This document shows positions 378-40,603 of a stretch of DNA of 40,603 nucleotides, piece after piece. A program made the position numbers and the translations under genes. Source of the stretch: a virus. Below the pieces are notes generated by a model. The model searched no databases. It had not been told where the DNA came from and was given only the letters and a program-made list of their open reading frames with translations. The stretch lies in the IMG/VR virus record IMGVR_UViG_3300035703_000183, positions 1-40,603 of that record, one strand, 5' to 3'. Positions within the stretch are counted from its first letter, which is position 1; the number at the start of each line of letters is the position of its first letter.

Positions 378-715
378 TGGCCACCTTCCCCAACTATGAC
401 CCGCAGTACGGCGCCAGCAAGACAAGCCAGCCGGCTGTCCGCCGCGTCCAGTTCGGCGACGGCTATTCCCAGCGTCTTGTTTTCGGTCTCAACCAAGACC
501 CCAAAGAATGGGCGCTGGAATTTAACGTCACTGAGGACGACGCCGACGTAATCGAGACTTTCCTCGAAGCCCGAGGCGGCGCCGAATCCTTCGACTGGAC
601 CCCACCGGACAGCAACACCTCCTACAAGTGGCTGTGTTCGGAGTGGAGCAAATCCATCGAACAGCCATTCCGAGCTGTGATCCGAACTACGTTCACCCAA
701 GTGTTCGAGCCCTGA
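377..715 (+). CDS. M: Minor tail protein M (lambda gpM-like)
   Basis: 112 aa. VRRVQFGDGYSQR and ETFLEARGG..SFDWTPP match the conserved lambda gpM motifs VRKVRFGDGYSQR and FLEEHGG..SFLWTPP. It sits directly after the tape measure gene. Confidence 0.9.
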   Translation: MATFPNYDPQYGASKTSQPAVRRVQFGDGYSQRLVFGLNQDPKEWALEFNVTEDDADVIETFLEARGGAESFDWTPPDSNTSYKWLCSEWSKSIEQPFRAVIRTTFTQVFEP

Positions 716-1608
716 TGGCCTATTCCGCCTGGGCCAGCTCTACTGCTTACTCGGTCGGCAACATCGTCCGAGCTAGCACCCTCCAGGCCAGCGGCCTTGT
801 TTTCCGCTGCACGGTCGCTGGAACGAGTGCATCAACGCAACCCACGTGGCCGACCGACATCGGCAGCACGATCGCCGACGGCACCGTCACTTGGGCAGCG
901 ATCAGCAGCGTCTACGAAGAACTTGCTGCACTGGCACCTAACGCCATCATCGAACTGTTCCAGCTGACGCTGGATGCAACACTGCACGGCACAAGCGACA
1001 CCTATTACTTCCATGCCGGCGTAAACGCCAGTGTTACCGGCAACATCGTGTGGAACGGCAACTCTTACGTCCGCCTACCAATTCAAGCCGAGGGCTTCGA
1101 TTATGCCAGCAGCGGTACCCTGCCCAGGCCCACACTGAGTGTGGCTAACCTTGGCGGCGAGATCAGCACTTTGATTTTGCTGGCCAACGCCGTCACACCC
1201 GGCAACGACTTAGGCGGTGCAAAGGTCACCCGTATCCGCACGCTGAAGAAATTCCTCGACGGCGAATCCGGCGCCGATCCACACGCAAAATTTCCGGACG
1301 AAATCTGGTACGTGGATCGCAAGTCTGCAGAAACTCGCGACATTGTGCAGTGGGAGCTGGCCAGCAAGCTGGACATGGCCGGCATGATGATCCCCAAGCG
1401 GCAACTGATCGCCAACATCTGTCAATGGCGATACCGCTCCAGCGAGTGCGGCTACACCGGCAGCAACTACTGGAACGCCAACGATCAACCAGTAGGCAGC
1501 CTTGCTGCTGATGCCTGCGGCAAACGGCTCGGGTCCTGCAAATTGCGTTTCGGCGCCACGTCACCGCTGCCTTTTGGCAGTTTCCCTGGCGTGGGCTTGA
1601 CGGAATGA
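715..1608 (+). CDS. L: Minor tail protein L (lambda gpL-like) with an N-terminal extension of about 70 aa
   Basis: The ATG at 715 overlaps the M stop (TGATG). RPTLSVANLGG, QWRYRSSECGYTG and GSCKLRF parallel lambda gpL RPTLTVSNLYG, TWTYRGDECGYSG and SGCKFR (the Cys cluster). The start is chosen by coupling; the track ORF starts at 628. Confidence 0.88.
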   Translation: MAYSAWASSTAYSVGNIVRASTLQASGLVFRCTVAGTSASTQPTWPTDIGSTIADGTVTWAAISSVYEELAALAPNAIIELFQLTLDATLHGTSDTYYFHAGVNASVTGNIVWNGNSYVRLPIQAEGFDYASSGTLPRPTLSVANLGGEISTLILLANAVTPGNDLGGAKVTRIRTLKKFLDGESGADPHAKFPDEIWYVDRKSAETRDIVQWELASKLDMAGMMIPKRQLIANICQWRYRSSECGYTGSNYWNANDQPVGSLAADACGKRLGSCKLRFGATSPLPFGSFPGVGLTE

Positions 1609-2318
1609 AACTAGGCACGACGCTACAGACCGAAATCCTCGCCTATGCGCAGGCGTGCGATCCAAAAGAGATGTGTGGCTTGATCCATGTGGTCAAAGGC
1701 CGCAAACGTTTTTATGCCTGCGCAAACATCGCCGAGACACCTGACGAGCACTTCGTACTGGATCCTGCCGACTACGCAGCCGCCGAAGATTTGGGCGAAA
1801 TCGTTGCCGTGGTACATAGCCACCCAACAAGCCGCCCGGTCGCATCTGCCGCCGATCAACTGAGCTGCAACGCCACCGGCCTGCCCTGGATCATCGTCAA
1901 CCCAAAGACCGAGGAGTGGGGCGGTTGCGAGCCAAAGGACTTCGAGCTGCCTTATGTCGGCCGCGAGTTTGTATTTGGCGTGGTGGATTGCTACAGCTTG
2001 TGCCGCGACTGGTACAAGCGCGAGTTCGGACTGGAACTAGCTGATTTTCCACGACGGGACCGCTTTTGGGAACGCGGCGAGAACTTGTACGTCGATGGGT
2101 ACAAGTCCCAAGGTTTTCGGCGCGTGCCGTTTGAAGAGCTGCAGTACGGCGACGCGATCCTGATGCAGCTTGGCGCTGACCTGCCTAATCACGGCGCCAT
2201 CTACCTTGGCGACCAGCAGATTTTGCATCATGTGCAGGGGCGGCTATCTAGTCGGGACGTGTACGGCGGCTACTATGTAAAGAGCACTGCCATGGTCCTG
2301 CGGCATGAAAGTCGTTAA
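1605..2318 (+). CDS. K: Tail assembly protein K (MPN/JAB plus NlpC/P60 domains)
   Basis: EMCGLI...VVHSHPTS is a JAB/MPN-like motif. The C-terminal half has VDCYSLCRDWY...NHGAIYLG..QILHH, the NlpC/P60 Cys-His-His pattern. 4-nt overlap with L. Confidence 0.88.
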   Translation: MKLGTTLQTEILAYAQACDPKEMCGLIHVVKGRKRFYACANIAETPDEHFVLDPADYAAAEDLGEIVAVVHSHPTSRPVASAADQLSCNATGLPWIIVNPKTEEWGGCEPKDFELPYVGREFVFGVVDCYSLCRDWYKREFGLELADFPRRDRFWERGENLYVDGYKSQGFRRVPFEELQYGDAILMQLGADLPNHGAIYLGDQQILHHVQGRLSSRDVYGGYYVKSTAMVLRHESR

Positions 2319-2949
2319 GGTCTACGGCACCCTCCGTAAGCTCCTTGGCGGACGATGCCGGTTCGAGTTTGAGGTTGATACACCAGCCCAAGCGCTGAAA
2401 GCGTTGTGCGTCAATTTCCCAGGCCTTGACAGGTGGCTGATGGACCGCGAAGCCGAAGGCACCGGCTTCCGCGTCACGGTCGGCCGCGACGCGATCACGC
2501 AAGAATCACCCGAAGCACTGGTACTGCCTTGGTCCGAACGCGAGGTCTTTAGCATCACGCCGGTGATCTGCGGCGCCGGTCAAGGCTTCGGGCAGGTGCT
2601 GGCTGGTATTGGTCTGATCGCATTGGCGATTGTTGCCGGTCCCGCCGGTGCTGGTTTCCTTGGTCTTGGGGCTGGCTTTATCTCAGGCGCTACAGCAAGT
2701 GCAGTCTCAGTCGCTCTTGGCGGCCTCGGCGCCAGTCTGCTTCTTGGCGGCGTCGCGCAGATGATCTCGCCGCAGCAAAATATGGGCGCTCTAACCAGTG
2801 GCCGCGAGGCAGCCCGCCTGGAGAGCTTCACTTTTTCGGGAATTGTAAATACGTCGAAACAGGGACTTCCTGTTCCGGTGGCCTACGGGCGTCTTTTTGT
2901 TGGCTCGGCCGTTATCAGCAGCGGCCTCGACGTTAATCAAACCGTATGA
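2305..2949 (+). CDS. I: Tail assembly protein I (lambda gpI-like)
   Basis: 214 aa with a Gly/Ala-rich hydrophobic central segment and C-terminal LPVPVAYGRLFVGSAVIS, as in gpI family proteins. Position is between K and J. Confidence 0.8.
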   Translation: MKVVKVYGTLRKLLGGRCRFEFEVDTPAQALKALCVNFPGLDRWLMDREAEGTGFRVTVGRDAITQESPEALVLPWSEREVFSITPVICGAGQGFGQVLAGIGLIALAIVAGPAGAGFLGLGAGFISGATASAVSVALGGLGASLLLGGVAQMISPQQNMGALTSGREAARLESFTFSGIVNTSKQGLPVPVAYGRLFVGSAVISSGLDVNQTV

Positions 2950-5900
2950 CTTACCCCGTAATCCAAGGTGCAGGTGGTGGCGGCGGTGGTAGCGGCTGTT
3001 TTCCGAACTACACGCTTATCAGCGTCCCAGGTGGCCAACGCCGGATCGACTCACTGGAGCCCGGCGAAATCGTCCTGAGTTTTGACGACCGTGGCCAGAT
3101 TCACCCGGCGAAGATCCTCAAGGTCCACATCCACGAAGACCAGCCGATCAAGCGCTACCACCTGTGGGGCGGCACGCACTTAGATGCGACACCCAACCAC
3201 TGGGTGCTGAACCAGTTCAACGCCTTCGTCTGCATCGACACGCTTGGCGCAGATGACTGTCTGGTCGACGGCCTCGGCCACCTGCGTCCAATCCTGCGCA
3301 AAGACGAACTGGAGCGCGGCACTGTTTACAACCTGACGGTCGAAGGCCAGCACACCTTTATTGCCGACAACATCCGTGTCCATAACGCAGGCCTCGGTGC
3401 GACGATCGCAGGTGCAGGCGGGGGTGGCGGTGGCGGCAAAGGCGGCGGTGGATCACAAAGCGTCCCAACTGAAGCTGATGACTCGCTGCAGTCAGTCCAA
3501 TACGCCAGCGTCCTCGATCTGCTGTGCGAAGGCGAGATCCAAGGCCTCGACGACGGCTTGAAGAGCGTCTATCTGGATGGTACGCCCATCGTTGGGCCAG
3601 GTGGCAGCAGCAACTTCAGCGGCTATACCACTGACTTCCGCACTGGCACGCAAGCCCAGACCTACATCGCCGCTACCGGCGGCACAGAGTCTGAGAACAC
3701 CGTCAATGTTGAGGTAACAAACGCAACGCCCGTCGTTCGCACGATCACCGACACCGACGTGGATCGCGTGCGGGTGACTATCCAACTGCCAGCGTTGCAG
3801 ATTATTGAAGACGATGGTGACATTATCGGCCACAGTGTCCGCATCCAGCTGCAAGTCCAATACAACGGCGGCGGTTATACCACGGTTGTAGATGACACAA
3901 TCAGCGGCAAAACCACCAACAGCTATCAGCGCGATTATCTGCTGACATTTAGCGGTAGTTTCCCTATCGACATTCGCATGGTGCGTGTGTCTGCCGATGA
4001 AAGCAGTGCCCGTCGCCAAAACCGCACCTTCTGGTTCAGCTATACAGAAATCCTCGACGAAAAACTGAGATACCCAAACTCAGCACTGTCGTTCCTGCGG
4101 TTTGACTCGCGCCAGTTCGACAGCATCCCGACGCGAAAATATCTGATCCGTGCCACGAAGGTGCAGCTGCCGTCCAACGCAACTGTCGACACCACCACCT
4201 ATCTCGGCCGCGTCACTTATGCCGGCGTATGGGACGGCACCTTCGGCGCCGCCACGTGGTGTGCTGACCCCGCATGGTGCTTATGGGACCTCATCACCAA
4301 TACCCGCTATGGAGCGGCTATTCCTGCTGCCACGCTCGACAAGTTTGACTTTTACGCCATCAGCCAATACTGCAACGAACTGGTCAGCAACGGCTTCGGT
4401 GGGCAAGAACCACGTTTTCAGTGTCACCTACTGCTGAACAATCGCGACGAAATTTACAACGTCATCCAAGAGTTTGTCTCGCTGTTCCGAGGCATCGCTT
4501 ACTACGGCGCCGGCTCGATGGTGGTTTTGCAGGACAAACCAGCCTCCTCGCAGTATCTGCTGGGACCCAGCAACGTTATCGACGGCAACTTCAGCTATTC
4601 GGGCAGCTCGCAAAAAGCGCGGCATAGCACGGCCACCGTTGCTTACCAGACCTACGACAGCCTTGGGGAAGTTCAGTTCGAGTATGTCGAAGACTCCGAC
4701 GCTGTATCTAAGTACGGGGTCATCAACAAAGAAATCAAGGCCATGGGCTGCTACAGCCGTGGCCAAGCACACCGCCTCGGCAAATGGGCCCTACTGGCCG
4801 AGCAAAACCTGACCGAAACTGTCAGCTTCTCTGTTTCACTGGAGTCGGGCATCATTTTGCGCCCTGGCATGGTGATCGACATTGCCGACCCGGTCAAGTC
4901 AGGCAGCCGTCGCTCAGGCCGCATCAGCAGCGCCACTACCACAGCCATCACAGTCGATTCCACGGTCGGGCTTCCCACAACTACAGCTAACTCCCCAACC
5001 ATTAGCGTGTTGCTGCCAACCGGCTTGGTTGAGACACGCTCGATCAGCAGCATTGCCGGCAGTGTATTTACTGTTAGCAGCGCATTTAGCGAAGCACCTA
5101 ACGCAGAAAGCGTCTTTTTAATCCAAACCACCGACATCCAATCCAACCAGTTCCGTGTTCTGTCGGTCACCGAAGGCGAAGCTGGTGCGTTCAGCGTCAC
5201 AGCGCTGACGTACAACAGCAGCATCTACGCCGCGATCGAAAGCGACCTGTCGCTCCAGTTCCGCGACATCAGCAACCTGTCGGCCATCCCCGACGCCCCC
5301 GGATCAATTACCGCCGTCGAGCACCTTTACGAAGACGGCCAGAGTGTCCTTACTGCTGTTGAATTGAGCTGGATCAGTCCGGTGCAGCGCGTCGCGGGCT
5401 TCCGCGTCGAATATCGGATCGACAACAACAACTGGATCCAGATCAACACGACTTCGCCCTCAACACGGCTTACTGGCCTGCGTGCCGGTACGTTGTACGT
5501 ACAAATCCGCAGCGTCAACAGCCTCAACAAACTGAGTGTTGCCTCAACGGCACAGTTCACGCTGGTCGGCAAAACCGCCCCTCCAGGCAATGTCCAGAAC
5601 CTGACCATCGAACCGATCAGCGCCAATAGCGCCCGCCTGCGCTGGAATCAGACTGTTGACCTTGACGTCAAAACCGGCGGCCGCGTCCACATCCGCCACA
5701 CCAACCTGACCAACGGAAGCGGCACCTGGAGCAACAGTGTCGACCTGATTCCAGCCAAATCAGGCGCCTCGACAGAAGCCATCGTGCCACTGGTCGAAGG
5801 CGAAATCTTGGTCAAGTTCGAGGATGACGGCGGCCGCCAAAGCCCTCAAGAAGCCAGCGTGATCGTCGATTTCCCCGATGCTGTTGGGGCGTTGATTATC

Positions 5901-6701
5901 CAACAACGCCGGGAAGATCAGGATGTGCCGCCATTCCAAGGCGCAAAAACCAACACCTTCTACAGCGAAGACCTTGATGCACTGGCACTGGATGCGGACG
6001 GCCTATTTGACGACATTGTCGACTTTGATCTGATCGCTACGCTTGACTTTTTCGGCGACATTGAAGTTTCTGGTGAGTACGCCTTTACCAGCACCCTTGA
6101 CCTTGGTGCGGTGTTCTCGCTGGATCTACGCCGCTATTTCATCACCCGTGGCTTCCTGCCAAGCGACCTGATCGACAGCCGCAGTGGGTTTGTCGATGAT
6201 TGGTCCGACTGGGACGGCGGCGTGATCGACGCGGTCAACGCCAAGCTATACCTGCGCCGCACACCAGACAATCCTGCTGGGACTCCAACTTGGTCCGGCT
6301 GGCAGGAGTTCGTTAATGGCACATTCTTGGGGCGTGGCTTCCAGTTCAAAGCCGAACTGACAAGTTCCGATCCTGCTGAGAGCATCCTTGTTGACGAACT
6401 CGGCTACGACGCCACCTTCCAGCGGCGTAGCGAGCAGTCTGTCGGCACCGTTACCAGCGGCGCTGGGACTGCATCAGTCGCGTTTGACAAGGCGTTTTTC
6501 ACTGGAACAGCCAGTCTCGGCGGCGTCAACGCTTACCTGCCCAGCATCGGCATTGTGGCCCAAAACCTGGCTACTGGCGACTACTTCAACGTCACCAACG
6601 TCAGCAACACCGGCTTCGATGTGACCTTCAGAAACAGCGCCGGCACTGCGGTTAGCCGCAATTTCCTATGGAGTGCCGTGGGATTTGGCAAGGGCGTCTA
6701 A
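2946..6701 (+). CDS. J: Tail tip / host specificity protein J (central fibre) carrying an N-terminal Hint domain
   Basis: 1251 aa, ATGA overlap with I. LQSVQYASVLDLLCEGEIQGLDDGLKSVYLDGTP aligns with lambda gpJ LKSTQLLSVIDAISEGPIEGPVDGLKSVLLNSTP. WCLWDLITNTRYG, EPRFQCH and GQAHRLGKWAL match further gpJ blocks. FN3-like repeats follow downstream. Confidence 0.92.
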   Translation: MTYPVIQGAGGGGGGSGCFPNYTLISVPGGQRRIDSLEPGEIVLSFDDRGQIHPAKILKVHIHEDQPIKRYHLWGGTHLDATPNHWVLNQFNAFVCIDTLGADDCLVDGLGHLRPILRKDELERGTVYNLTVEGQHTFIADNIRVHNAGLGATIAGAGGGGGGGKGGGGSQSVPTEADDSLQSVQYASVLDLLCEGEIQGLDDGLKSVYLDGTPIVGPGGSSNFSGYTTDFRTGTQAQTYIAATGGTESENTVNVEVTNATPVVRTITDTDVDRVRVTIQLPALQIIEDDGDIIGHSVRIQLQVQYNGGGYTTVVDDTISGKTTNSYQRDYLLTFSGSFPIDIRMVRVSADESSARRQNRTFWFSYTEILDEKLRYPNSALSFLRFDSRQFDSIPTRKYLIRATKVQLPSNATVDTTTYLGRVTYAGVWDGTFGAATWCADPAWCLWDLITNTRYGAAIPAATLDKFDFYAISQYCNELVSNGFGGQEPRFQCHLLLNNRDEIYNVIQEFVSLFRGIAYYGAGSMVVLQDKPASSQYLLGPSNVIDGNFSYSGSSQKARHSTATVAYQTYDSLGEVQFEYVEDSDAVSKYGVINKEIKAMGCYSRGQAHRLGKWALLAEQNLTETVSFSVSLESGIILRPGMVIDIADPVKSGSRRSGRISSATTTAITVDSTVGLPTTTANSPTISVLLPTGLVETRSISSIAGSVFTVSSAFSEAPNAESVFLIQTTDIQSNQFRVLSVTEGEAGAFSVTALTYNSSIYAAIESDLSLQFRDISNLSAIPDAPGSITAVEHLYEDGQSVLTAVELSWISPVQRVAGFRVEYRIDNNNWIQINTTSPSTRLTGLRAGTLYVQIRSVNSLNKLSVASTAQFTLVGKTAPPGNVQNLTIEPISANSARLRWNQTVDLDVKTGGRVHIRHTNLTNGSGTWSNSVDLIPAKSGASTEAIVPLVEGEILVKFEDDGGRQSPQEASVIVDFPDAVGALIIQQRREDQDVPPFQGAKTNTFYSEDLDALALDADGLFDDIVDFDLIATLDFFGDIEVSGEYAFTSTLDLGAVFSLDLRRYFITRGFLPSDLIDSRSGFVDDWSDWDGGVIDAVNAKLYLRRTPDNPAGTPTWSGWQEFVNGTFLGRGFQFKAELTSSDPAESILVDELGYDATFQRRSEQSVGTVTSGAGTASVAFDKAFFTGTASLGGVNAYLPSIGIVAQNLATGDYFNVTNVSNTGFDVTFRNSAGTAVSRNFLWSAVGFGKGV
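2997..3386 (+). other. Hint (intein-like / BIL-like) domain embedded after residue 17 of J
   Basis: 130 aa from Cys (CFPNYTLISV, block A) to VHN (block G). It has TPNH (block B TxxH) and VYNLTVEGQHTFIADNIRVHN (blocks F/G). The +1 residue is Ala and there is no endonuclease domain. Confidence 0.8.
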
Positions 6702-6728
6702 AGTGTAAACATTGCCTGCTTCCGATTC

Positions 6729-8180
6729 GTGGCACAACACGACTACGTCATCGCCAACGGCACTGGTGCTGCCGTCCGCTCTGACCTGAACAACGGCCTC
6801 GCCGCAATCGTCAGCCAAAACAGCGGCACGACAGAGCCCACCACCACCTACGCCTACATGCGCTGGGCCGATACCACGGCTGGCGTCATGAAGATGCGTA
6901 ACGGCGCCAATAATGCCTGGATCACCCTTTACCAACTCGACGGCGAGTGGAGCACCATCGCCTTTGAGAACGGCAGCGCTTCCGCTCCATCCATCTACTT
7001 CAAGGACAGCGGCACCGATACCGGCATCTACAGCCCTGGCACCGATCAGGTCGCCATCAGCACGGGCGGAACCGGAAGACTGTTTGTTGACTCCAATGGT
7101 CGGGTAGGTCTGGGGACTAGTAGTCCTGGCGCAAGATTTGATGTTGTCAGCGCAGATAATACGGCAGCAACAACAATTGTCTCCGTAGCGGCTAATAATC
7201 AAACAAGCGCTATTCAGCTTGGTTATAACAGAATTACGCAAGTCAATTCAACACCGGCAAGTGCGTATTTGCAGCTTGGTGTTAGCAATAACACAACTGC
7301 AGTTCACATTGACGGAACAGGCAAGGTAGGGATTGGCACTACTTCGGCCACCGAGTTACTTTCCGTCAACGGCAATCTTTGGCTCGGCAATGGCGGCGGG
7401 TCTGGCGGATCTGAGATGCTCCGCATTTGGAATGATAATGGTGTCGAGAGGATTCACGGCAGCGGCAATCCTTCTGCCGTTGCGTTTGGCATGGGAGGAC
7501 ACACCAGTGTCTCTGAAGCTTTCAGAATTGATACATCACGCAGGCTCTTAGTTGGCACGACTACTGATTCCATAGGCACAGCAGGCACTGTTCTGTATGG
7601 AGCAACAGGAGCTTCAATAACCAGATCCGGCGGTGTACTATGGGCTTTGAATCGGTTAACAAATGATGGCAACTTAATTGAATTTTACCAAGACGGTACA
7701 GTTGAAGGAGCTATTTCTGTATCTGGAAGTACCGTCACCTACGGCGGCGGTCACCTTGCCCGCTGGTCCCAACTCCCCAACGACGACGATCCATCTGGTT
7801 TGCTGAAGGGCACCGTCATGTCCAACTTAAACGAGATGTGCGAATGGGGCGAAGAAGATAACGAACAGCTCAACAAAACCAAGGTAAGCGACGTTGAAGG
7901 CGACCCTAACGTAGCTGGCGTATTTGTCTCTACATCGTTCGATGAGGTTGGTCCACAGGATTTCTTCGTCGCAATGACCGGCGACATGATCATCCGCATT
8001 GCCGAAGGAGTCACGGTGCAGCGGGGCGACCTGCTGATGTCCGCTGGTGATGGCACCGCCAAACCGCAAGACGACGACATTGTGCGCAGCAAGACTATCG
8101 CCAAGGTGACCAGCACTCACGTCACCTGTACTTATGACGATGGCAGCTACTGCGTGCCCTGCGTGCTGATGGCTTGCTAG
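6729..8180 (+). CDS. Tail fibre protein
   Basis: 483 aa with a GTG start. The N-terminus AQHDYVIANGTGAAVRSDLNNGLAAI is typical of phage fibre N-terminal domains. It has Gly/Ser/Thr-rich beta-type repeats and sits immediately after J. Confidence 0.75.
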   Translation: MAQHDYVIANGTGAAVRSDLNNGLAAIVSQNSGTTEPTTTYAYMRWADTTAGVMKMRNGANNAWITLYQLDGEWSTIAFENGSASAPSIYFKDSGTDTGIYSPGTDQVAISTGGTGRLFVDSNGRVGLGTSSPGARFDVVSADNTAATTIVSVAANNQTSAIQLGYNRITQVNSTPASAYLQLGVSNNTTAVHIDGTGKVGIGTTSATELLSVNGNLWLGNGGGSGGSEMLRIWNDNGVERIHGSGNPSAVAFGMGGHTSVSEAFRIDTSRRLLVGTTTDSIGTAGTVLYGATGASITRSGGVLWALNRLTNDGNLIEFYQDGTVEGAISVSGSTVTYGGGHLARWSQLPNDDDPSGLLKGTVMSNLNEMCEWGEEDNEQLNKTKVSDVEGDPNVAGVFVSTSFDEVGPQDFFVAMTGDMIIRIAEGVTVQRGDLLMSAGDGTAKPQDDDIVRSKTIAKVTSTHVTCTYDDGSYCVPCVLMAC

Positions 8181-27092: not shown

Positions 27093-28340
27093 ATGCCCGA
27101 ATCGCCAGCATTAACGCTCCGTTGGGCCCAAGGCGAGGTGTTTGGCAGCCGCAAACGCTTCCGTGTGCTGGTTGCCGGCCGCCGCTTCGGCAAAAGCTAC
27201 CTGTCATGTATCGAATTATTGCGTGGGGCGATCGAGCGGCCGGGCGAAACGTTCTTTTACGCGGCCCCTACATACCGAATGGCGAAGGACATCGCCTGGA
27301 AGGTGATGAAAAAACTCGTCCCCAAGGCCTGGATCAAGAGCAAGAACGAAACCGACCTGAAGATTGAGCTGGTAAACGGCAGCACGATCGAATTAAAGGG
27401 CACCGAAAACGCAATGGCGTTGCGCGGCCGCAGTTTGGCCGGCGTGGTGCTGGACGAAGCCGCCTTCATGGACGCCGAGGTCTGGTTCGAAGTGATCCGC
27501 CCGGCCTTAGCAGACAAACAAGGCTGGGCTTTATTCATCTCCACCCCCGACGGCACCGCCAGCTGGTTCTATGAACTATGGCAATACGCCGAGAGCGGCG
27601 ACAACGACTGGAGCCGCTGGCAATTCACGACAATCGAAGGCGACAACGTCCCACCGGAAGAAATCGAAGCCGCCCGAGGCCAACTCGACGCCCGCACCTT
27701 CCGCCAAGAATTTGAAGCCAGCTTCGAGAATCTTTCCGGCCTTGTCGCCGTCAGCTTCAGCGACGAAAACATCTCCACGCAAGCTATCGACATCCCAACA
27801 CTTCCCCTAATGGTTGGCGTCGACTTCAACAACGACCCGATGACTGGCATCGTCTCCGTACGCCACAACGACAACCTATACGTCATCGACGAAATCATCC
27901 TTACCGGCGGCGCCACCACCTGGGATTTCTGCGACGAACTTATCCGCCGCTACGGCGTCGAGCGCCGCATCATCACATGCCCAGATCCAACTGGAGCAGC
28001 TCGCAAGACAAGTGGCGTTGGCTACACAGACCACAACATCCTGCGTAAATCTGGTTTTACCGTCTCTAGCCCTCGCTCTCCGTGGAAAATCCGCGACAAA
28101 ATTACATGCGCTAATACAGCGCTTCTCGATGCAGCCGGAAATCGTCGCACGTTAATCCACCCTAAGTGCCGCGAACTTATCAAATCCCTCCGCACCCTCA
28201 CCTACACCCCCAACACTGGCCTCCCCAACAAAAACCTAGGCGTCGACCACGCCTTCGACGCCTTCGGTTATCTCTGCCTTCAAGTATTCAACCTTGCGAA
28301 TATCGGCAAAATCGGCACTACAGACTACCGCCTGTACTAA
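27093..28340 (+). CDS. terL: Terminase large subunit
   Basis: Walker A is VAGRRFGKS and Walker B is GVVLDEAAF. The C-terminal nuclease-type segments are VGVDFNNDP and DHAFDAFGY. 415 aa. Confidence 0.9.
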   Translation: MPESPALTLRWAQGEVFGSRKRFRVLVAGRRFGKSYLSCIELLRGAIERPGETFFYAAPTYRMAKDIAWKVMKKLVPKAWIKSKNETDLKIELVNGSTIELKGTENAMALRGRSLAGVVLDEAAFMDAEVWFEVIRPALADKQGWALFISTPDGTASWFYELWQYAESGDNDWSRWQFTTIEGDNVPPEEIEAARGQLDARTFRQEFEASFENLSGLVAVSFSDENISTQAIDIPTLPLMVGVDFNNDPMTGIVSVRHNDNLYVIDEIILTGGATTWDFCDELIRRYGVERRIITCPDPTGAARKTSGVGYTDHNILRKSGFTVSSPRSPWKIRDKITCANTALLDAAGNRRTLIHPKCRELIKSLRTLTYTPNTGLPNKNLGVDHAFDAFGYLCLQVFNLANIGKIGTTDYRLY

Positions 28341-28846
28341 AAATCCAACGACGCAATAAGTGCATCTACAGCCAGCTTGGCTTCCGCCGACGTACCAAAT
28401 GCTTTTGTGCTATACAACTTTCCGTTACGTCTTACCTGTCCTATCCACTGGAGTTTTCGCCTGTACACATGTTTGTGCGGCGATCTCCGCCGTTTGTGAC
28501 CCACCTGATTAGTGATGTTTTGCCCTCTCTTCACTAACCGCAGATTAGTCCAGCGATTATCCAGTCCATTACCGTTAATGTGATCAACCATCAAATCCCC
28601 TGGATCTTCTCCGGTCATGTACATCCATATAAGGCGGTGAGCGTAGTAAGTAACACCATGAAAACGTCCGGCGTAATAGTGCTTTGTACTGTTCGAGCCT
28701 TTACCTAGCGTTGTTTTCGAGCCAAAAAATGTCCCAGGGCGTACCCGCGACTGCTCACTTGGCAGAAGCCAGATCAACTCACCCGTCTGCGGATCGTACT
28801 CCAAGCATTCCTGAAGAATCCCTTGCACCGGAAGAGGTTTGGGCAT
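28337..28846 (-). CDS. HNH (HNH_3-type) homing endonuclease with AP2-like DNA-binding domain
   Basis: VDHINGNGLDNRWTNLRLV is the HNH_3 motif. C-terminal YRRKLQWIGQVRRNGKLYSTKAFGTSAEAKLAVDA is AP2-like. It lies on the opposite strand, overlaps the terL stop by 4 nt, and has lower GC than its flanks. Confidence 0.85.
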   Translation of the reverse strand: MPKPLPVQGILQECLEYDPQTGELIWLLPSEQSRVRPGTFFGSKTTLGKGSNSTKHYYAGRFHGVTYYAHRLIWMYMTGEDPGDLMVDHINGNGLDNRWTNLRLVKRGQNITNQVGHKRRRSPHKHVYRRKLQWIGQVRRNGKLYSTKAFGTSAEAKLAVDALIASLDF

Positions 28847-28906
28847 GACTTAAACAGACTGCATGTAGATCCTAGCACGCTAGACTGGAGTATCCGCCAT
28901 ACATAA

Positions 28907-29074
28907 ATGGCCAAAAAACCCACCAAAGCCCAGAAAAAGGTGGAAAAAGTGCTGTCCGAGTACAAATCGGGCACCCTAAAGTCCAGCTCGGGCAAAAAAG
29001 TAACCGGCCGCAAGCAGGCAATCGCCATCGCCCTCTCCGAGGCTGGCCAAACCCGCAAAAAGAGGACCAAGTAA
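28907..29074 (+). CDS. Small basic conserved protein (55 aa)
   Basis: Hand translation gives MAKKPTKAQKKVEKVLSEYKSGTLKSSSGKKVTGRKQAIAIALSEAGQTRKKRTK. The KQAIAIALSEA motif is recalled from a widespread small-protein family. Confidence 0.55.
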   Translation: MAKKPTKAQKKVEKVLSEYKSGTLKSSSGKKVTGRKQAIAIALSEAGQTRKKRTK

Positions 29075-29247
29075 TGGCTAAACCCGGCCTCTACGCCAAC
29101 ATCAACGCCAAGCGCAAGCGCATCGCTGCCGGAAGCAACGAAAAAATGCGTAAGCCTGGCTCAAAAGGCGCCCCAACCGACGCTGCCTTCAAAGCAGCCG
29201 CCAAAACCGCCAAACCGGCTAAACCCACCAAAAAACGGAGCAAGTAA
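29074..29247 (+). CDS. Small basic protein (57 aa)
   Basis: Hand translation gives MAKPGLYANINAKRKRIAAGSNEKMRKPGSKGAPTDAAFKAAAKTAKPAKPTKKRSK. TAATG junction with the preceding ORF. Confidence 0.5.
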   Translation: MAKPGLYANINAKRKRIAAGSNEKMRKPGSKGAPTDAAFKAAAKTAKPAKPTKKRSK

Positions 29248-29249
29248 TT

Positions 29250-29594
29250 ATGGCCGCCGTCGCTCTTGCCACCACCGACCGCTACACCAACATCATCGAA
29301 TACAGCGGCGCCAAACTAACCGCCCTCGATGACTGGTTCGAGGTCCCCGCCCACTCGGGCAGCTATACGATGGCTGCCACCGTGGTCGGCTCCGCCACCT
29401 TCAAACTTGCAATCGAGTGCAGCTTCAACGGCACCTGGTTCACAATCGAAGCCGCCAAAACAATCAACTCTGCTGGCGCCTACGTTTATTTCTACGACGG
29501 TAAACCAGCAGCTAAACTCCGCCTTCGCATCTCCCAAGTCGACTCTGGCACTCCCGACGTAACCCCATACATCGCAGTTGCGTACCACGGCTAA
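29250..29594 (+). CDS. Hypothetical structural-module protein
   Basis: 114-aa ORF, beta-rich composition. Confidence 0.55.
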   Translation: MAAVALATTDRYTNIIEYSGAKLTALDDWFEVPAHSGSYTMAATVVGSATFKLAIECSFNGTWFTIEAAKTINSAGAYVYFYDGKPAAKLRLRISQVDSGTPDVTPYIAVAYHG

Positions 29595-29794
29595 TGGCAA
29601 TCCAAACCATTAACGGCGGCTGCATCCACATCGAAATCGACGCGGAAGACGGCCTCACTCACGCCACATTCGCCTTCAAAACACCATCAATACCCGAAAC
29701 TCTGGGCGGCTTTATCACAATGCTCGCCCACGGAATCGAAGTGCTGGTGCCCCTTCCCGATCCCGACGACGAGGAGCCCGAAGACGATGATTGA
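29594..29794 (+). CDS. Hypothetical protein with acidic tail
   Basis: 66-aa ORF with coupled start. Confidence 0.45.
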   Translation: MAIQTINGGCIHIEIDAEDGLTHATFAFKTPSIPETLGGFITMLAHGIEVLVPLPDPDDEEPEDDD

Positions 29795-30059
29795 GTATCG
29801 CGGCGAACGCTTCGAGGGCTACAACAAACCCAAACGCACCCCAAATCACCCCGAAAAATCACACGTTGTCCTCGCAAAAGACGGCGACACAGTAAAACTT
29901 ATCCGTTTCGGCCAACAGGGCGTAACTGGCTCACCACCAAAAACAGGAGAAACAGAAGCAGCGAAGGCCAGAAGGGCATCGTTCAAAGCGCGTCATGCCT
30001 CTAACATAAAGAAAGGCAAAATGTCCGCCGCCTACTGGGCCGATAAGGTGAAATGGTGA
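29787..30059 (+). CDS. Conserved phage protein, function unknown
   Basis: 90 aa. GYNKPKRTPNHPEKSHVV...FGQQG...SAAYWA resembles a family seen in other phages (recollection only). Confidence 0.55.
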   Translation: MIEYRGERFEGYNKPKRTPNHPEKSHVVLAKDGDTVKLIRFGQQGVTGSPPKTGETEAAKARRASFKARHASNIKKGKMSAAYWADKVKW

Positions 30060-30063
30060 CCCG

Positions 30064-31614
30064 ATGACCTACGCAGTTCCCGGCCAAATCCGCACCCATC
30101 TTGTCAGTTCGACCTTTGAAGGCCCGACTGACTCACCCTTCACGCGCACCCGCGCCGTGTTGGACATGATGCGCGGCTGGGAAATCATGAAAGCGGTCAG
30201 CCTAGGTACCGAATACCTGCGCGAAAACAGCGAAACCTTCCTCCCCCTGGAACCCCGCGAGGACTACACGGCCTACTTGGCCCGCGTCAACCGCGCCGTC
30301 TTCTCACCCTTCACGCAACGACTGGTCCGCGCCGCTGCCGGCCTGATCCTACGCAAACCGATTGTCCTCGAAGGCGACCCCTACTGGAGCGAAATCTTCG
30401 CCAAGGACGTCGACGGTTGCGGCTCGGACCTGGACGAGTATGCCCGCCGCCTACTGATCTGCGCCCTTACCTACGGCCACTGCCACACACTGGTCGATTT
30501 CCCAGCCCCAACTGGCGCCCGCAGCCTGGCGGAAGAACGCGCCCTAAACCGCCGCCCGTACTGGATCGAGGTCGACCCGCAGAATGTGTACGGCTGGCGC
30601 TTGGACCGCGAGGTCAACTACGGCAAGCTCATCCAGGTCCGAATCGCCGAAAAAGCCATCGTCCCCGACGGCCGCTTCGGCGAAAAAGTGTACGACCAGA
30701 TCCGCGTCATCGAGCCAGGCCGCTACGAGATCTACCGCCAACTGGAGAGCCGCAAGGACATGTACGGCCAAATGCCGTACCCCAACTCGTTTGACGTAAC
30801 AGGCCCCACGGGCGGCAACTACGAGCTAGTTGAAACTGGCGCTTACAGTTTGGGCGAAATCCCCCTCGTAACCCTTTACTCGAACAAGACCGACACGCTG
30901 GTCAGCAAACCCCCACTACTGGACATCGCCTACCTAAACCTGGCGCATTTCCAACGCCAAGCCGACCTGATCCACAGCCTGCATGTCGCCAGCCAACCCA
31001 TGCTTGTCCTCGAAGGCTGGGACGACCAGACCAAGGACCTTGCCATTAGCGTTAATTATGCGTTGGCGATGCAGCCCGGCAACAAGGCTTATTACGTGGA
31101 GCCTGCGTCTAGCGCTTTCGAGGCCCAGTCAAACGAAATAAAAGAACTGCAGATGCAGATGGCGACGCTGGGCATCAGCACTCTGAGCCAGCAAAAGTTT
31201 GTCGCCGAATCTGCCGACGCCCGCCGCTTGGACCGCGTCGACACCAACTCGATGCTGTCGATGGTCTCGATGGATTTACAGCAAACGCTGCAAGGCGCCT
31301 TCAACCTGGCCGCCAACTACCTCCAGCTGGAGCCCCCCAAGGTCTACGTAAGCCGCGACTTCGACATCGACCGCCTGATCGGCCAAGACATTACCGCCCT
31401 GACGACACTGTTCACGCAGCAGGTAATCGACCGCGAAGAGTTCCGCGACATCCTGCGCCAAGGCGAAATCCTATCAGCTGGCGTCTCGATGGACGGCGAT
31501 AACGAAGCCACCGAGTCTGCAGAGGAAGAAGCCCGCGAAGAAGAGGAAGAAAATTCCTCCGACGGAATATCTGCCGACCAGATGGAGCGTCTAATTCAAG
31601 CAATGATGGGCTGA
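30064..31614 (+). CDS. Portal protein
   Basis: 516 aa, positioned between terL and the scaffold/capsid genes. The N-terminal pattern [20 protein letters not shown]...[13 protein letters not shown] resembles DUF4055-type portals. The C-terminus is acidic. Confidence 0.75.
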
Positions 31615-38048: not shown

Positions 38049-38069
38049 TAAAACAGGATTCAGGCGCCG

Positions 38070-40603
38070 GTGGCCAACTACAACGCCAACATCAACATCA
38101 CTGTTGCTGGTGCGTCGCGCCTGAACGCAGTAACAGCATCTGTTGAACGCTTAAATAACTTAAGCCAGAATCTAAAACCACTAAATTTACTTGCACCCGG
38201 CGGCGGAAAGCTGGGCGACTCAATTCGCCTAGCTATCAAACCGATCAACGATTTTGCCCGCAGCGTACAGAATGGTAATAAACGAATCTCTAATACTTTT
38301 GCCGGTGCAGTCCAACAAGCAAACGTATTCCGCACAGTTTTAGAGAACGTAAAAGTAGCTGCAGGTGGTTACGAAAAACAGTCAGCGTCGGTAAAACTAT
38401 ACGCCAATGCTCTTGCTGAAGCTGAAAAACAGGCTACTCGACTTTCTGCGGCTCAAAACGATCTCGCTCGGACCGCAAAAGGTCTGCAAACTCAATCTCA
38501 ACGCGATTTTGAGTATTACCGCCGTCTAAACACTATTCAAAGCGGACGTTTTAAGCAACGTCAACAAGAAGCCCGAGCAACAGAGGCAATAAACGAGGCT
38601 GAACGCATTGCCGCTAGTGTTCGTGAGCGAGAAACAGCAAGAACCACGGCACAGCAAGCCAGGGGCAAAAGAATACGGGGTGCCATCAGCGAAGGTATTA
38701 TCGGCGGCTCGTTCCCTCTTCTGTTTGGTCAAGGACCAGGTGCAGCAGCAGGTGGTGCAATAGGAGGCATCGCCGGAGGTCTTTTAGGGCCGGGAGGCGG
38801 TTTTGCAGGTTCGCTGTTGGGCACTCTTCTAGGTGGTATTGCTGAACAAGGCAATAAAATTAAGGAATTAGCCGGAGACATAGGTTTTACAGCACAGCAG
38901 ACACTACAACTACAGGCCGCTTTCAAATTAGCCGGGGCAGATGCAGATAAATTTACCGAGGCTGTTCAAAATATACGCGGTGTTGGTTTAGCAATTGAAG
39001 ACCAAGCAAAAGCTATACAGCTTATAAGTGTTCTTACCGAAAAGTTTGGCGGGAATATCACAAAAACTACAAATGCCTTGACCGGAGCACTAGAAAGCGG
39101 TAAAGTAACACAAGCTACACTTAATCAACTACAAAATCAAGGTATAGATATTCAAAGTGCTTTAGCAGAAAAGTATAAAACAAATCGCAATAGTATTCTT
39201 TTGATGGCAAAAGACGGAAAAATTTCCGTTCAGGATTTAATTAACACTTTAGTAGACTTGGGTAATAAGGGTACAGAGTCTACTACTAAAAATAAAACGG
39301 CTGTCGAAACCCTCACAGACGCTTGGAATAATTTGGCGCGTGCAATCGGAAGCATTGCAAGCACGATTGTAGTAAAATTGACTCCTCCTTTTGATTGGCT
39401 TGTAAAACGTTTAGCGGACATAACAAATATTGCAGCTAATGCTGTTGCTCAGATAGGATCCCTTATTGATCGGGCAGCTTTTGGTCCGCGAGCGCAAGCA
39501 GTGAAAGCGGTGCAACAAGGGCAATTACCGTTTGGTACACAAGGTGTTGTCGAACTTATAGGACAAAAACGAACACGAGAACTCCAAAAACAGGCAGGTC
39601 CCGGTATGCTCGGGTTCGGCTTTAATACGGACAAATTTGTAAAACTTTTACAGCAACAACCGGAATTTCGCGTAAAGAGTCAAGCTCTTCCTCCCCTAAA
39701 ACCTTTCGCCGCCCCTTCTCAGTTACCGCCGTCAGCAGGTAAGGCATCAAAACCTAAAAAAGACAGAGCTGCCGAAGAAGCGCAGCGCCTTCAAGCAGTG
39801 CTAAAGCAGTTGCGCGAAGAAATCAGTATTCGCGACAGAGTACTTCAGATAGAAGAAAATATAATCCGCGCTCGCGCCGATCAAGATGATGTTGCTTTAG
39901 CTGAACTTGCTTCGGACCAGCGCATCCTAGAAATAGGCATTCGGCGTGCAAAAGTACAGAAAGATTTTGATGCTGGCCGCATCCAGCAAGCTGAATTTAT
40001 GCTGCGTATGCAGCTAATCGAGTTTGACCAGACAGAAGAACAATTAAAAACAGAAGAAGCGCTCAACAAGATATACCGCGAGCGTTTCGGTATTGTTGAT
40101 TCTGTAGCTCGTGCAGCTCGACAAGCCCGCGAAGCTGCATTCGGTAACACACCTGGCGCTGCCGGAGGAGCAGGCGCTTTTCGCACAGACATCGACTTGA
40201 TGCCAGGACTTACTGGTGGCGTAACCGGTGAACAGATCGGTTTACTAAAAACCGAACTAGAGGAACTCGTAAAAGTTGAAAACCAAGTAATCCAAGCCGC
40301 CAAGAGTATAGGCGACGCCTTCGGCACCTCACTGAAAGGCGTCATCACTGGCACGATGACTGCCCAAGAAGCACTAGCCAACTTCTTCCAGTCGGTAGCC
40401 GATCATTTTGCCGACATGGCAGCCCAGATGATCTCCAAGTGGCTGCAGATGCAAATCCTCGGCTTGGCACAGAGCCTGCTGCCCGGCGGAAGCACCATAT
40501 TCCCGCGAGGGGTCGATAACTTCAGCAGTTTCTTCGGTGCTGGCGGCCCTTCCTTCTCAGTAGGGGCTTTCGGTGGTGCCCGCGCAGCCGGCGGCCCGGT
40601 CGC
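38070..40603 (+). CDS. Tape measure protein (N-terminal 844 codons; runs off the window and continues at 128..377)
   Basis: I translated the whole stretch by hand and found no stop from GTG 38070 (in-frame TAA at 38049) to the window end. It has a Gly-rich hydrophobic segment GGSFPLLFGQGPGAAAGGAIGGIAGGLLGPGGGFAGSLLG, a tape-measure-domain-like FTEAVQNIRGVGL...GKVT..TLNQLQNQGIDI, and long coiled-coil stretches. It is missing from the ORF track because it has no stop in the window. Confidence 0.88.
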   Translation, partial: MANYNANINITVAGASRLNAVTASVERLNNLSQNLKPLNLLAPGGGKLGDSIRLAIKPINDFARSVQNGNKRISNTFAGAVQQANVFRTVLENVKVAAGGYEKQSASVKLYANALAEAEKQATRLSAAQNDLARTAKGLQTQSQRDFEYYRRLNTIQSGRFKQRQQEARATEAINEAERIAASVRERETARTTAQQARGKRIRGAISEGIIGGSFPLLFGQGPGAAAGGAIGGIAGGLLGPGGGFAGSLLGTLLGGIAEQGNKIKELAGDIGFTAQQTLQLQAAFKLAGADADKFTEAVQNIRGVGLAIEDQAKAIQLISVLTEKFGGNITKTTNALTGALESGKVTQATLNQLQNQGIDIQSALAEKYKTNRNSILLMAKDGKISVQDLINTLVDLGNKGTESTTKNKTAVETLTDAWNNLARAIGSIASTIVVKLTPPFDWLVKRLADITNIAANAVAQIGSLIDRAAFGPRAQAVKAVQQGQLPFGTQGVVELIGQKRTRELQKQAGPGMLGFGFNTDKFVKLLQQQPEFRVKSQALPPLKPFAAPSQLPPSAGKASKPKKDRAAEEAQRLQAVLKQLREEISIRDRVLQIEENIIRARADQDDVALAELASDQRILEIGIRRAKVQKDFDAGRIQQAEFMLRMQLIEFDQTEEQLKTEEALNKIYRERFGIVDSVARAARQAREAAFGNTPGAAGGAGAFRTDIDLMPGLTGGVTGEQIGLLKTELEELVKVENQVIQAAKSIGDAFGTSLKGVITGTMTAQEALANFFQSVADHFADMAAQMISKWLQMQILGLAQSLLPGGSTIFPRGVDNFSSFFGAGGPSFSVGAFGGARAAGGPV
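40477..40603. repeat. Second copy of the terminal duplication (identical to 1-127)
   Basis: Direct comparison. Confidence 0.95.

Follow-up and report, generated by a model that had tools for sequence, protein, structure and literature searches.

Why would the tail-tip protein of a siphophage begin with a domain that resembles an intein, and what becomes of that domain once the protein is made? The question arises from IMG/VR virus record IMGVR_UViG_3300035703_000183, of which positions 1 to 40,603 (40,603 nucleotides, called the window here) were analyzed. A first-pass annotation of this DNA had placed an intein-like Hint domain near the start of gene J. In lambda-type siphophages, J initiates assembly of the tail tip and recognizes the host. 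We found that the J module is a genuine Hint domain with the full catalytic residue set, namely Gly at -1, Cys1, the block-B T-x-x-H and the terminal His-Asn, and that the Hint-J family is large, old and conserved rather than a curiosity of a single phage. As to its role, the conserved residues and the comparisons described below incline us, slightly beyond an even judgment, to the view that the domain acts as a self-removing N-terminal pro-segment of the bacterial intein-like (BIL)/PT-HINT type, in which cyclization of Asn147 would free J with a native-like tail.

Gene J (2946-6701, + strand) encodes a tip attachment or central tail fiber protein of 1251 amino acids, Hint domain included, and was assigned by Pfam matches to FNIII-A_GpJ (6.5e-38) and Phage-tail_3 (3.9e-14) and by similarity to lambda gpJ (8IYK, E 1e-95). 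Its parts, all on the + strand, are arranged as follows. The open reading frame (ORF) opens with a 17-residue leader, or N-extein, MTYPVIQGAGGGGGGSG (2946-2996), which holds the native J motif hydrophobic-x-G-[AS]-G-G-G and ends in the invariant Gly at -1. The putative autoprocessing Hint domain of BIL/PT-HINT type occupies 130 residues (2997-3386) and is marked by Cys18 (codon TGT, 2997-2999), Thr82-Pro-Asn-His85 of block B, Asn129, and His146-Asn147 (3381-3386, with the Asn147 codon AAC at 3384-3386). Its blocks read CFPNYTLISV, ATPNHW, VYNLTVEGQHTFIA and NIRVHN. The sequence downstream of the module is AGLGATIAGAGGGGGGGKGGGGSQSVPTEADDSLQS, which can also be written AGLGATIAGAGGGGGGG then KGGGGSQSVPTEADDSLQS. 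It begins with a spacer, AGLGAT, and a second motif copy, IAGAGGGGGGG (3387-3437), with Ala148 at +1 and the invariant Gly149 at +2. The sequence common to Hint-free J proteins and lambda gpJ starts at 3438-3470 (K165-GGGG-SQSVPT). The remainder, starting with K165, is an ordinary J that aligns to lambda gpJ residues 3-454, with K165 opposite K3, in agreement with the earlier proposal that J resumes after the module and can be aligned to the N-terminus of gpJ. The ORF, the Hint blocks, the Ala at +1 and the post-module sequence could each be read from the DNA where that annotation had located them. Between N147 and K165 the window sequence offers no ATG, GTG or TTG in frame; Hint and J are therefore one polypeptide, and a separate J start after the Hint domain was rejected.

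We compared the module with known Hint domains at the levels of profile and fold. Taken alone, the window protein matched Pfam Intein_splicing (3.6e-7) and Hint (2.2e-5) at the two ends of the fold, both below the gathering scores (30.6 vs 35.8 and 24.6 vs 29.7, respectively). A family profile built from 18 homologous N-termini matched solved Hint domains of the PDB over their full length, with 2LWY, a BIL domain of C. thermocellum, first (3.3e-11), and next gp41-1, Tetrahymena BIL2 (1.5e-9), the RecA, DnaE and DnaB mini-inteins, and Hedgehog. PT-HINT, Hint and Intein_splicing were each matched by 17 of these 18 relatives (best PT-HINT match 5.3e-10), the window protein being the sole member without a PT-HINT match. 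An AlphaFold2 model of the module had a predicted local distance difference test (pLDDT) score above 93 over residues 20-145, and both Gly tracts were disordered. A Foldseek search with this model returned Tetrahymena BIL2 at the top (4e-11, target TM-score 0.80), then the DnaB and gp41-1 mini-inteins and 2LWY, among 64 PDB Hint-domain matches at E<=1e-3; target TM-scores were 0.86 for 2LWY and reached their maximum, 0.9, with gp41-1. The Hint/intein match expected of the module is thus provided by the family profile and the confidently predicted fold, with the single protein staying below the Pfam thresholds.

The catalytic residues are retained throughout the family. Invariant among the 18 relatives were G17, C18, F19, T82, N84, H85, N129, H136, H146, N147 and G149, as was the string N-H-W-V-L-N-Q, which extends past the usual block B. 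In block F, Asn129 was invariant (V-Y-N-L-T-V), where the aligned gp41-1 has Asp and the BIL domain 2LWY has Asn. Among 76 close variants, Gly occupied -1 and +2 in all 76, and the +1 residue was Ala in 68, Gly in 7 and Thr in 1; in distant J-like cluster representatives, +1 was Gly in 58 of 66. Cys1, the Gly at -1 and the terminal His-Asn were retained in every complete sequence examined, close variants and distant representatives alike. Because the +1 residue is almost always Ala or Gly in the family, class-1 splicing is not expected. The non-nucleophilic +1 residue, from which the first-pass annotation had drawn the same expectation, is thus a family trait (Ala or Gly, rarely Thr) and no accident of one phage. 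One subclade (L086, an Aquiluna metagenome-assembled genome [MAG] contig, and P0029) has Thr at +1, reading RVHN/TGSGEG... and RVHN/TGKGSG... (the slash marks the edge of the Hint domain); from these residues, class-1 splicing would be chemically possible there. At only 130 residues the module has no endonuclease domain, and its earlier description as an element without a homing endonuclease stands.

We determined how widely this arrangement occurs. A word-indexed search found the Hint-J fusion in about 60 metagenomic proteins, and a scan with the Hint domain found relatives encoded on at least 579 IMG/VR contigs. GTDB genomes contributed 10 contigs with relatives, including long betaproteobacterial ones (Castellaniella, 704 kb; Oxalobacter). 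The family takes in prophages as well as environmental phages, among them betaproteobacterial prophages in Castellaniella NZ_JAUCCV010000002 (L084) and Oxalobacter JAJDFZ010000019 (L089). A first set of 91 loci comprised one J-carrying contig (L001), 80 IMG/VR loci from the Hint scan and the 10 GTDB loci. All 91 had the same layout, consisting of Met, a short Gly-ending leader, C...HN, [A/G/T]-G, a Gly tract, K-GGGG, and J. Wherever the contig spanned the gene, J was a single continuous ORF (1,037-1,672 codons); shorter frames were cut off by the end of the contig or, in the case of L001, by a frameshift error. A hidden Markov model search of 1.84 billion cluster representatives gave 190 matches at E<=1e-30. 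Of 143 new representatives, 66 were J-like (376-3102 amino acids) with the Hint Cys at residue 8-34; the clusters were made at 50% identity and the count is a lower bound. Two Hint modules were counted in four of these 66, in tandem at the N-terminus in three of the four. The tandem Hints in J of P0121, P0129 and P0220 are joined by a short Gly-Lys linker (...IRVHN/GGGGGKG/CFEAF...IRVHN/GGGGGKSGGGGGGGK...). Aquiluna and Lake 'K_Offshore_surface' MAGs, together with a Limnocylindrus sequence with Hint-free J, hint at freshwater hosts. GenBank phages yielded no match to a megablast of window positions 2000-7000, and tblastn of the module against them (INPHARED) matched nothing but three unrelated inteins, weakly (about 28% identity), in genes not annotated as J; the fusion occurred in 0 of 50,697 GenBank phage records. 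An exact look-up of the window J protein likewise gave no entry.

The shared layout bears on whether the fusion could be an artefact, be it an assembly chimera, a separate Hint ORF with J downstream, or an I-J frameshift fusion with gpI as the N-extein. Some entries are indeed fragmented (L001, P0001 and P0031), but as a result of long-read frameshift errors, and with one layout in all 91 loci and a single ORF wherever the gene was fully covered, an artefact of any of these kinds is extremely improbable. The I-J fusion was also rejected on the local sequence, as a TAA (2934-2936) lies three codons 5' of the J ATG in the J frame, the 9 nucleotides between them contain no slippery heptamer, and upstream of J this frame shows no conservation from one locus to the next. 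The same long-read errors garble or shorten entries of the family. In L001 (ENA ERZ28548055 contig_19121_pilon) J is broken into at least 5 called genes. Because such errors split J, the family looks like short 'hypothetical proteins' in databases.

J genes without the domain were as informative as those with it. A scan with the J core, unbiased as to Hint, collected 80 loci, of which 44 were Hint-positive, 34 were Hint-negative and 2 were undetermined (approximately 56% positive). The insertion site is a low-complexity Gly tract 17 residues from the J N-terminus. Hint-free alleles miss exactly the Hint domain and one motif copy (MTRILGAGGGGGGGGGGGKGGGG... versus MTRILGAGGGGGGG/C...HN/AGLGLGIAGAGGGGGGGGKGGGG...), so that precise empty-site alleles exist; the homologs lacking the insert between the Gly tracts, which the first-pass annotation had considered, number 34 in this sample. 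Hint-free J genes were common and their reading frames looked intact. In the J tree the Hint-positive and Hint-negative alleles interleave, and some mixed pairs share 99.8% identity over 576 residues (L128/L129 and L147/L140). At the DNA level, L128 and L129 were 100% identical from the Gly tract downstream and diverged upstream. For pairs whose J 5' regions were at least 95% identical, the median identity of the upstream 600 nucleotides was 97% when both were Hint-positive, 96% when both were Hint-negative, and 73% for mixed pairs. Distances of the Hint domain and the J core correlated (rho 0.62), with disagreement in both directions. The interleaved states, the one-sided flank identity, the diverged upstream DNA of mixed pairs and the discordant distances, taken together, say that homologous recombination is what reshuffles the cassette, and that its junctions lie at the Gly tracts. 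We sought linkage of the Hint state to the gpI variant as a sign of co-adaptation and found none; gpI clusters mixed Hint-positive and Hint-negative loci. Judging from contig names, both allele types occurred in the same IMG metagenomes (3300044825, 3300010354, 3300012000, 3300032322 and 3300034021), which suggests a within-community polymorphism.

These results could also be produced by a selfish or neutral passenger resembling a mini-intein, which gives the phage no benefit, keeps its catalysis since failure to be removed kills J, and is spread through a highly mosaic phage population by recombination and hitch-hiking. Inteins classically show this distribution, with presence or absence at one exact site in otherwise nearly identical alleles; the domain appears dispensable given that Hint-free J genes are common and look intact, the Hint and J-core trees conflict in both directions, and Hint state is unlinked to gpI type. 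However, without a homing endonuclease the element has no drive, and loss should be easy given the repeats and the Hint-free alleles; yet the domain is retained in about 56% of close J genes and in at least 66 deep clusters. Together with the constraint and the relatives described next, this makes the passenger explanation doubtful in our judgment, though one that carries real weight.

Selection on the domain was assessed over 579 pairs. The ratio of nonsynonymous to synonymous substitution rates (dN/dS) was 0.109 for Hint and 0.124 for the J core, and mean amino-acid identity was 73% and 63%, respectively. As both measures show Hint to be as constrained as the J core, the constraint falls on the whole domain, beyond the active site, and a passenger under such constraint (dN/dS 0.11, as strict as the J hub) is harder to envisage. 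The closest non-J relatives of the Hint domain (P0122, P0123, P0128, P0165 and P0170) are proteins of about 850-1130 residues built of a signal peptide, 2-5 tandem Hints, a transmembrane segment and a Tim44-like domain (PF04280). Their Hints are separated by linkers of 3-4 residues (GGG/CF...VHN/KGG/CF...), and +1 is almost always Lys. Because there is almost no extein between modules, these arrays cannot be ordinary inteins, and it is in such cellular proteins rather than in inteins that the nearest non-J kin of the J domain are found. Exported tandem arrays as closest non-J relatives may point to a function of the subfamily beyond self-excision. Since the cassette persists without drive where loss should be easy, is constrained over the whole domain, and has cellular tandem arrays rather than inteins as nearest non-J relatives, we lean toward a conditionally useful pro-segment that selection maintains, and away from a pure parasite.

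The flanks of the domain were examined next to the Hint-free alleles. An imperfect direct repeat brackets the insert, with its upstream arm, ATCCAAGGTGCAGGTGGTGGCGGCGGTGG, at 2961-2989 and its downstream arm, ATCGCAGGTGCAGGCGGGGGTGGCGGTGG, at 3405-3433 (both + strand). The arms are 29 nucleotides long, 83% identical and 444 nucleotides (148 codons) apart, so the repeat reported earlier is real and slightly longer than described. A 23-mer of the repeat had 2 matches at up to 3 mismatches, versus 0 in 100 shuffles. Both arms encode the same peptide motif, I-x-G-A-G-G-G-G-G-G, and the native hydrophobic-x-G-[AS]-G-G-G motif is found on both sides of the Hint domain. Across distant clusters, unusual variants of the motif agreed left and right (VIGSKGG/VIGSKGG, VKGSKG/VKGSKG, GHGGG/GHGGG and GRKG/GRKG). 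In a permutation test across these clusters, a kind of test that kinship of sequences inflates, a leader and its own post-Hint segment shared a mean of 1.89 non-Gly matches versus 1.50 in permuted pairs (z = 6; 0 of 10,000 permutations). Within the close clade the covariation was weak (3.0 vs 2.75 matches of 5); it emerged clearly only when distant clusters were compared. The motif was not duplicated in 14 of 61 distant representatives, where HN ran directly into GGGGKGGGG. Gly-rich flanks were common to native J N-termini, to this Hint subfamily and to the Hint modules of the nearest non-J relatives. The repeat had been taken as a duplication created by, or permitting, insertion or excision. 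Its role as a site of recombination junctions at the Gly tracts is upheld by the allele comparisons, but a simple target-site duplication is not, because Gly-rich flanks are typical of native J and of the Hint subfamily in any case and 14 of 61 representatives are unduplicated.

On these grounds the removal of the pro-segment may proceed as follows. J residues 1-164 would form a facultative cassette composed of leader, Hint domain and a spacer with the second copy of the native motif. Cys18 would form a thioester with Gly17 by an N-S acyl shift, and Asn147, aided by His146, would cyclize and cut the N147-A148 bond, after which the leader thioester would be hydrolyzed. Mature J would then begin AGLGATIAGAGGGG...KGGGG, copying the Hint-free N-terminus in motif and length, and the freed Hint domain would be discarded or lost in tail-tip assembly. 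At the DNA level, the Gly-tract repeats of about 29 nucleotides and the homologous flanks could permit loss or gain of the cassette, with the two arms recombining or Hint-free alleles being exchanged in co-infection.

Lengths of the tail bear on this proposal. From +1 to the conserved EADD segment, C-terminal cleavage in the window clade would leave a median of 30 residues (24-38), and splicing would leave 45 (35-53), compared to 29 (24-36) in Hint-free J. The cleavage product would be native-like, because a 30-residue tail is indistinguishable from the 29 residues of Hint-free J. The same numbers bear on true splicing without a nucleophilic side chain, in which the freed alpha-amine of Ala148 (Gly in most relatives) would attack the Gly17-Cys18 thioester and the leader would be ligated, so that mature J retains MTYPVIQGAGGGGGGSG-AGLGAT.... 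Strict conservation of G-C-F and T-x-x-H agrees with such a reaction; the small residues always found at +1 and +2 (Ala or Gly, then Gly) and the flexible Gly tracts on either side are suited to aminolysis. In the 14 unduplicated representatives, the domain splits ...GSGGG/GGGGKGGGG, and ligation would yield precisely the native N-terminus. The best match by sequence, 2LWY, is itself a BIL domain, and splicing or trans-splicing by BIL domains without a +1 nucleophile is reported by Dassa et al. in 2004 (J Biol Chem) and Aranko et al. in 2013 (FEBS J). However, BIL domains give mainly cleaved products and become efficient splicers only once mutated (PMC7664689). A 45-residue tail (35-53) moreover lies outside the native range of 24-36 in this clade, which the cleaved product fits, and ligation would leave the duplicated, co-varying post-Hint motif without a reason. 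Splicing by this route is therefore unlikely, in our view, though far from fanciful.

Several observations weigh against the self-removing pro-segment and should be set beside the evidence for it. An intein living as a parasite in an essential protein would equally be expected to show low dN/dS and catalytic conservation. Were C-terminal cleavage all that mattered, there would be no need for the strict Cys1, Phe2, block B and Gly-ending leader; because this N-terminal machinery is strictly conserved, thioester chemistry, whether ligation or coupled cleavage, appears to be under selection. The representatives without motif duplication count here as well, since their full native N-terminus would be restored by splicing alone; after cleavage, a lambda-like GKG... 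start would nonetheless be left. Among 155 loci there was no pair of Hint-positive and Hint-negative alleles with both flanks more than 97% identical, the nearest to a clean indel being L147/L140 and L131/L140 (95-99%); in-place deletion between the repeats is plausible and was not caught directly in those loci. Lastly, the chemical steps that we infer for J come from conserved residues and BIL precedents, which we also count against the proposal.

Another scenario is that the Hint domain is not removed at all and stays on the virion, flexibly tethered at the hub periphery, for example as an envelope-binding or structural module, with its 'catalytic' residues put to other use. The N-terminus of lambda J is located on the outside of the hub, in a hypervariable part that adjoins the gpL C-domain and tolerates added domains (PMC10721106; PMC13243795), the N-H-W-V-L-N-Q string is invariant beyond the usual block B, and P0121 and P0129 carry two Hints in tandem. 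A structural role would not need the full autoprocessing residue set found in every complete sequence, however, and the second motif copy is best explained by loss of the first; retention on the virion is very unlikely.

If the pro-segment of J is removed as proposed, it could time or gate tail-tip assembly, with the J N-terminus unavailable until J is folded, or it could shield newly made J from tail-fiber-directed defenses such as Bil ubiquitin-like conjugation. A link between the Hint domain and Bil-type defenses that modify the central tail fiber is speculation. The Bil paper (bioRxiv 10.1101/2023.09.04.556158) gives no conjugation site, and for the Tai defense, escape mutations fall in the C-terminal region of J, not at the N-terminus. 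The most complete version of the proposal, in which the cassette is a conditionally beneficial self-removing pro-domain of the tail-tip initiator held in a balanced presence/absence polymorphism, strikes us as rather improbable as it stands, and is put forward tentatively. Whatever its role, the family offers hundreds of natural Hint variants of about 130 residues between Gly linkers with Ala or Gly at +1, which are useful for the choice between cleavage and ligation in BIL domains. Hint chemistry of this kind could amount to natural peptide ligation without a nucleophilic side chain, and the J Hint is a possible traceless N-terminal self-cleaving tag. Fine-scale presence and absence without a homing endonuclease makes the locus a tractable test of viral parasites versus adaptations. 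For annotation, it matters that the sources searched leave J proteins with the domain unnamed or label them 'hypothetical protein', and that the mature N-terminus given for them is probably wrong.

The window, which assembled as a circle, represents the whole genome of a siphophage, about 40.5 kb in size; its ends repeat each other over at least 100 nucleotides (regions 1-140 and 38052-40603). Among its genes are those for a DNA polymerase, a primase, an exonuclease, the large terminase, the portal and the major head protein, and an open frame of about 864 codons that crosses the junction of the window ends is presumably the tape-measure gene. The lambda-type tail-tip module spans 628-6701 in the order L-K-I-J, with L assigned by PF05100, K by JAB and NlpC/P60, I by phrog_32, and J by FNIII-A_GpJ and Phage-tail_3. 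Gene I (2305-2949, + strand; phrog_32, 2.2e-46), encoding a tail assembly protein or plug, lies between K and J, and its TGA stop overlaps the J start codon (ATGA). The gpK protein (1605-2318) combines a JAB/MPN peptidase domain and an NlpC/P60 domain, and its gene is one gene upstream of J, whose N-terminal Gly tract contains an invariant Lys (K165) that is present in Hint-free J too. The listed L ORF (628-1608) has 326 residues, and its Phage_tail_L match is limited to residues 122-323; its N-terminal 120 residues overlap the preceding ORF (377-715) and have a weak CBM_5_12 match (E 0.088), so either the GTG start was called too far upstream or L has an N-terminal extension. Elsewhere, the large-terminase ORF (415 residues; region 27093-30064) covers only positions 261-592 of the 807-position phrog_2 profile, and between this gene and the portal gene lie about 1.7 kb of lower guanine-cytosine (GC) content (0.53) with small ORFs only. 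GC content was 0.46 at 38-40 kb versus approximately 0.58 in the rest of the window.

How, then, does the J domain compare with systems already described? To our knowledge, no autoprocessing step at the J N-terminus has been reported. No description of a Hint domain or intein on J was found in the literature searched, and the intein literature on phiCbK concerns TerL and ribonucleotide reductase, not J. In the solved lambda gpJ and TipJ structures (8IYK, 9E7M; F2-pyocin fiber), the chains begin directly at the GKG... segment without a Hint domain, and their residues 3-9 align to residues 163-165 of the window J. Hedgehog Hog domains share the G/C-F cleavage-site tripeptide and the Hint fold (1AT0 and 6TYY were matched), but the J Hint has no sterol-recognition region and ends in His-Asn followed by Gly-rich J, whereas Hog has no His-Asn; the profile matches to Hedgehog span only the N-terminal two-thirds.

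Class-1 mini-inteins (gp41-1, DnaB, DnaE and RecA) have in common with the J Hint the fold, a length of about 130 residues, Cys1, T-x-x-H, the terminal His-Asn, and presence or absence at one exact site among close alleles. They differ in having Cys, Ser or Thr at +1 and Asp in block F, where the J Hint has Ala or Gly and Asn, respectively. They also reside in conserved active-site motifs of replication and packaging enzymes, in contrast to the low-complexity N-terminal tail and 17-residue N-extein of J. The canonical class-1 intein definition therefore fails for the J Hint at +1, and the BIL description fits the sequence.

The BIL2 domain of Tetrahymena BUBL1 (6Y75/6TMM) is the best structural match, at a sequence identity of 18-19%. 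It is proposed to conjugate a ubiquitin-like domain through the thioester. BIL2 is eukaryotic and flanks that ubiquitin-like domain, whereas the J N-extein is merely a short Gly-rich peptide. The closest likeness is to A-type BIL (2LWY) and PT-HINT (PF07591) domains, which share with the J Hint the fold, Cys1, T-x-x-H, the terminal His-Asn, and the lack of a +1 nucleophile and of an endonuclease; like the J Hint, 2LWY has Asn in block F where gp41-1 has Asp. BIL domains, which have no +1 nucleophile, give mainly N- and C-cleaved products (PMC7664689; PMC7765530), and known BIL/PT-HINT domains lie within variable secreted proteins or in polymorphic toxins, upstream of the toxin module (PMC7765530). 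Unlike these, the J Hint sits at the extreme N-terminus of a lambda-type tail-tip protein, behind a leader of 8-34 residues, with a Gly tract on either side and, usually, two copies of the flanking motif. The type of domain is thus known; what is new is a BIL/PT-HINT-type Hint in a new host protein, at a new position and in a new flanking architecture.

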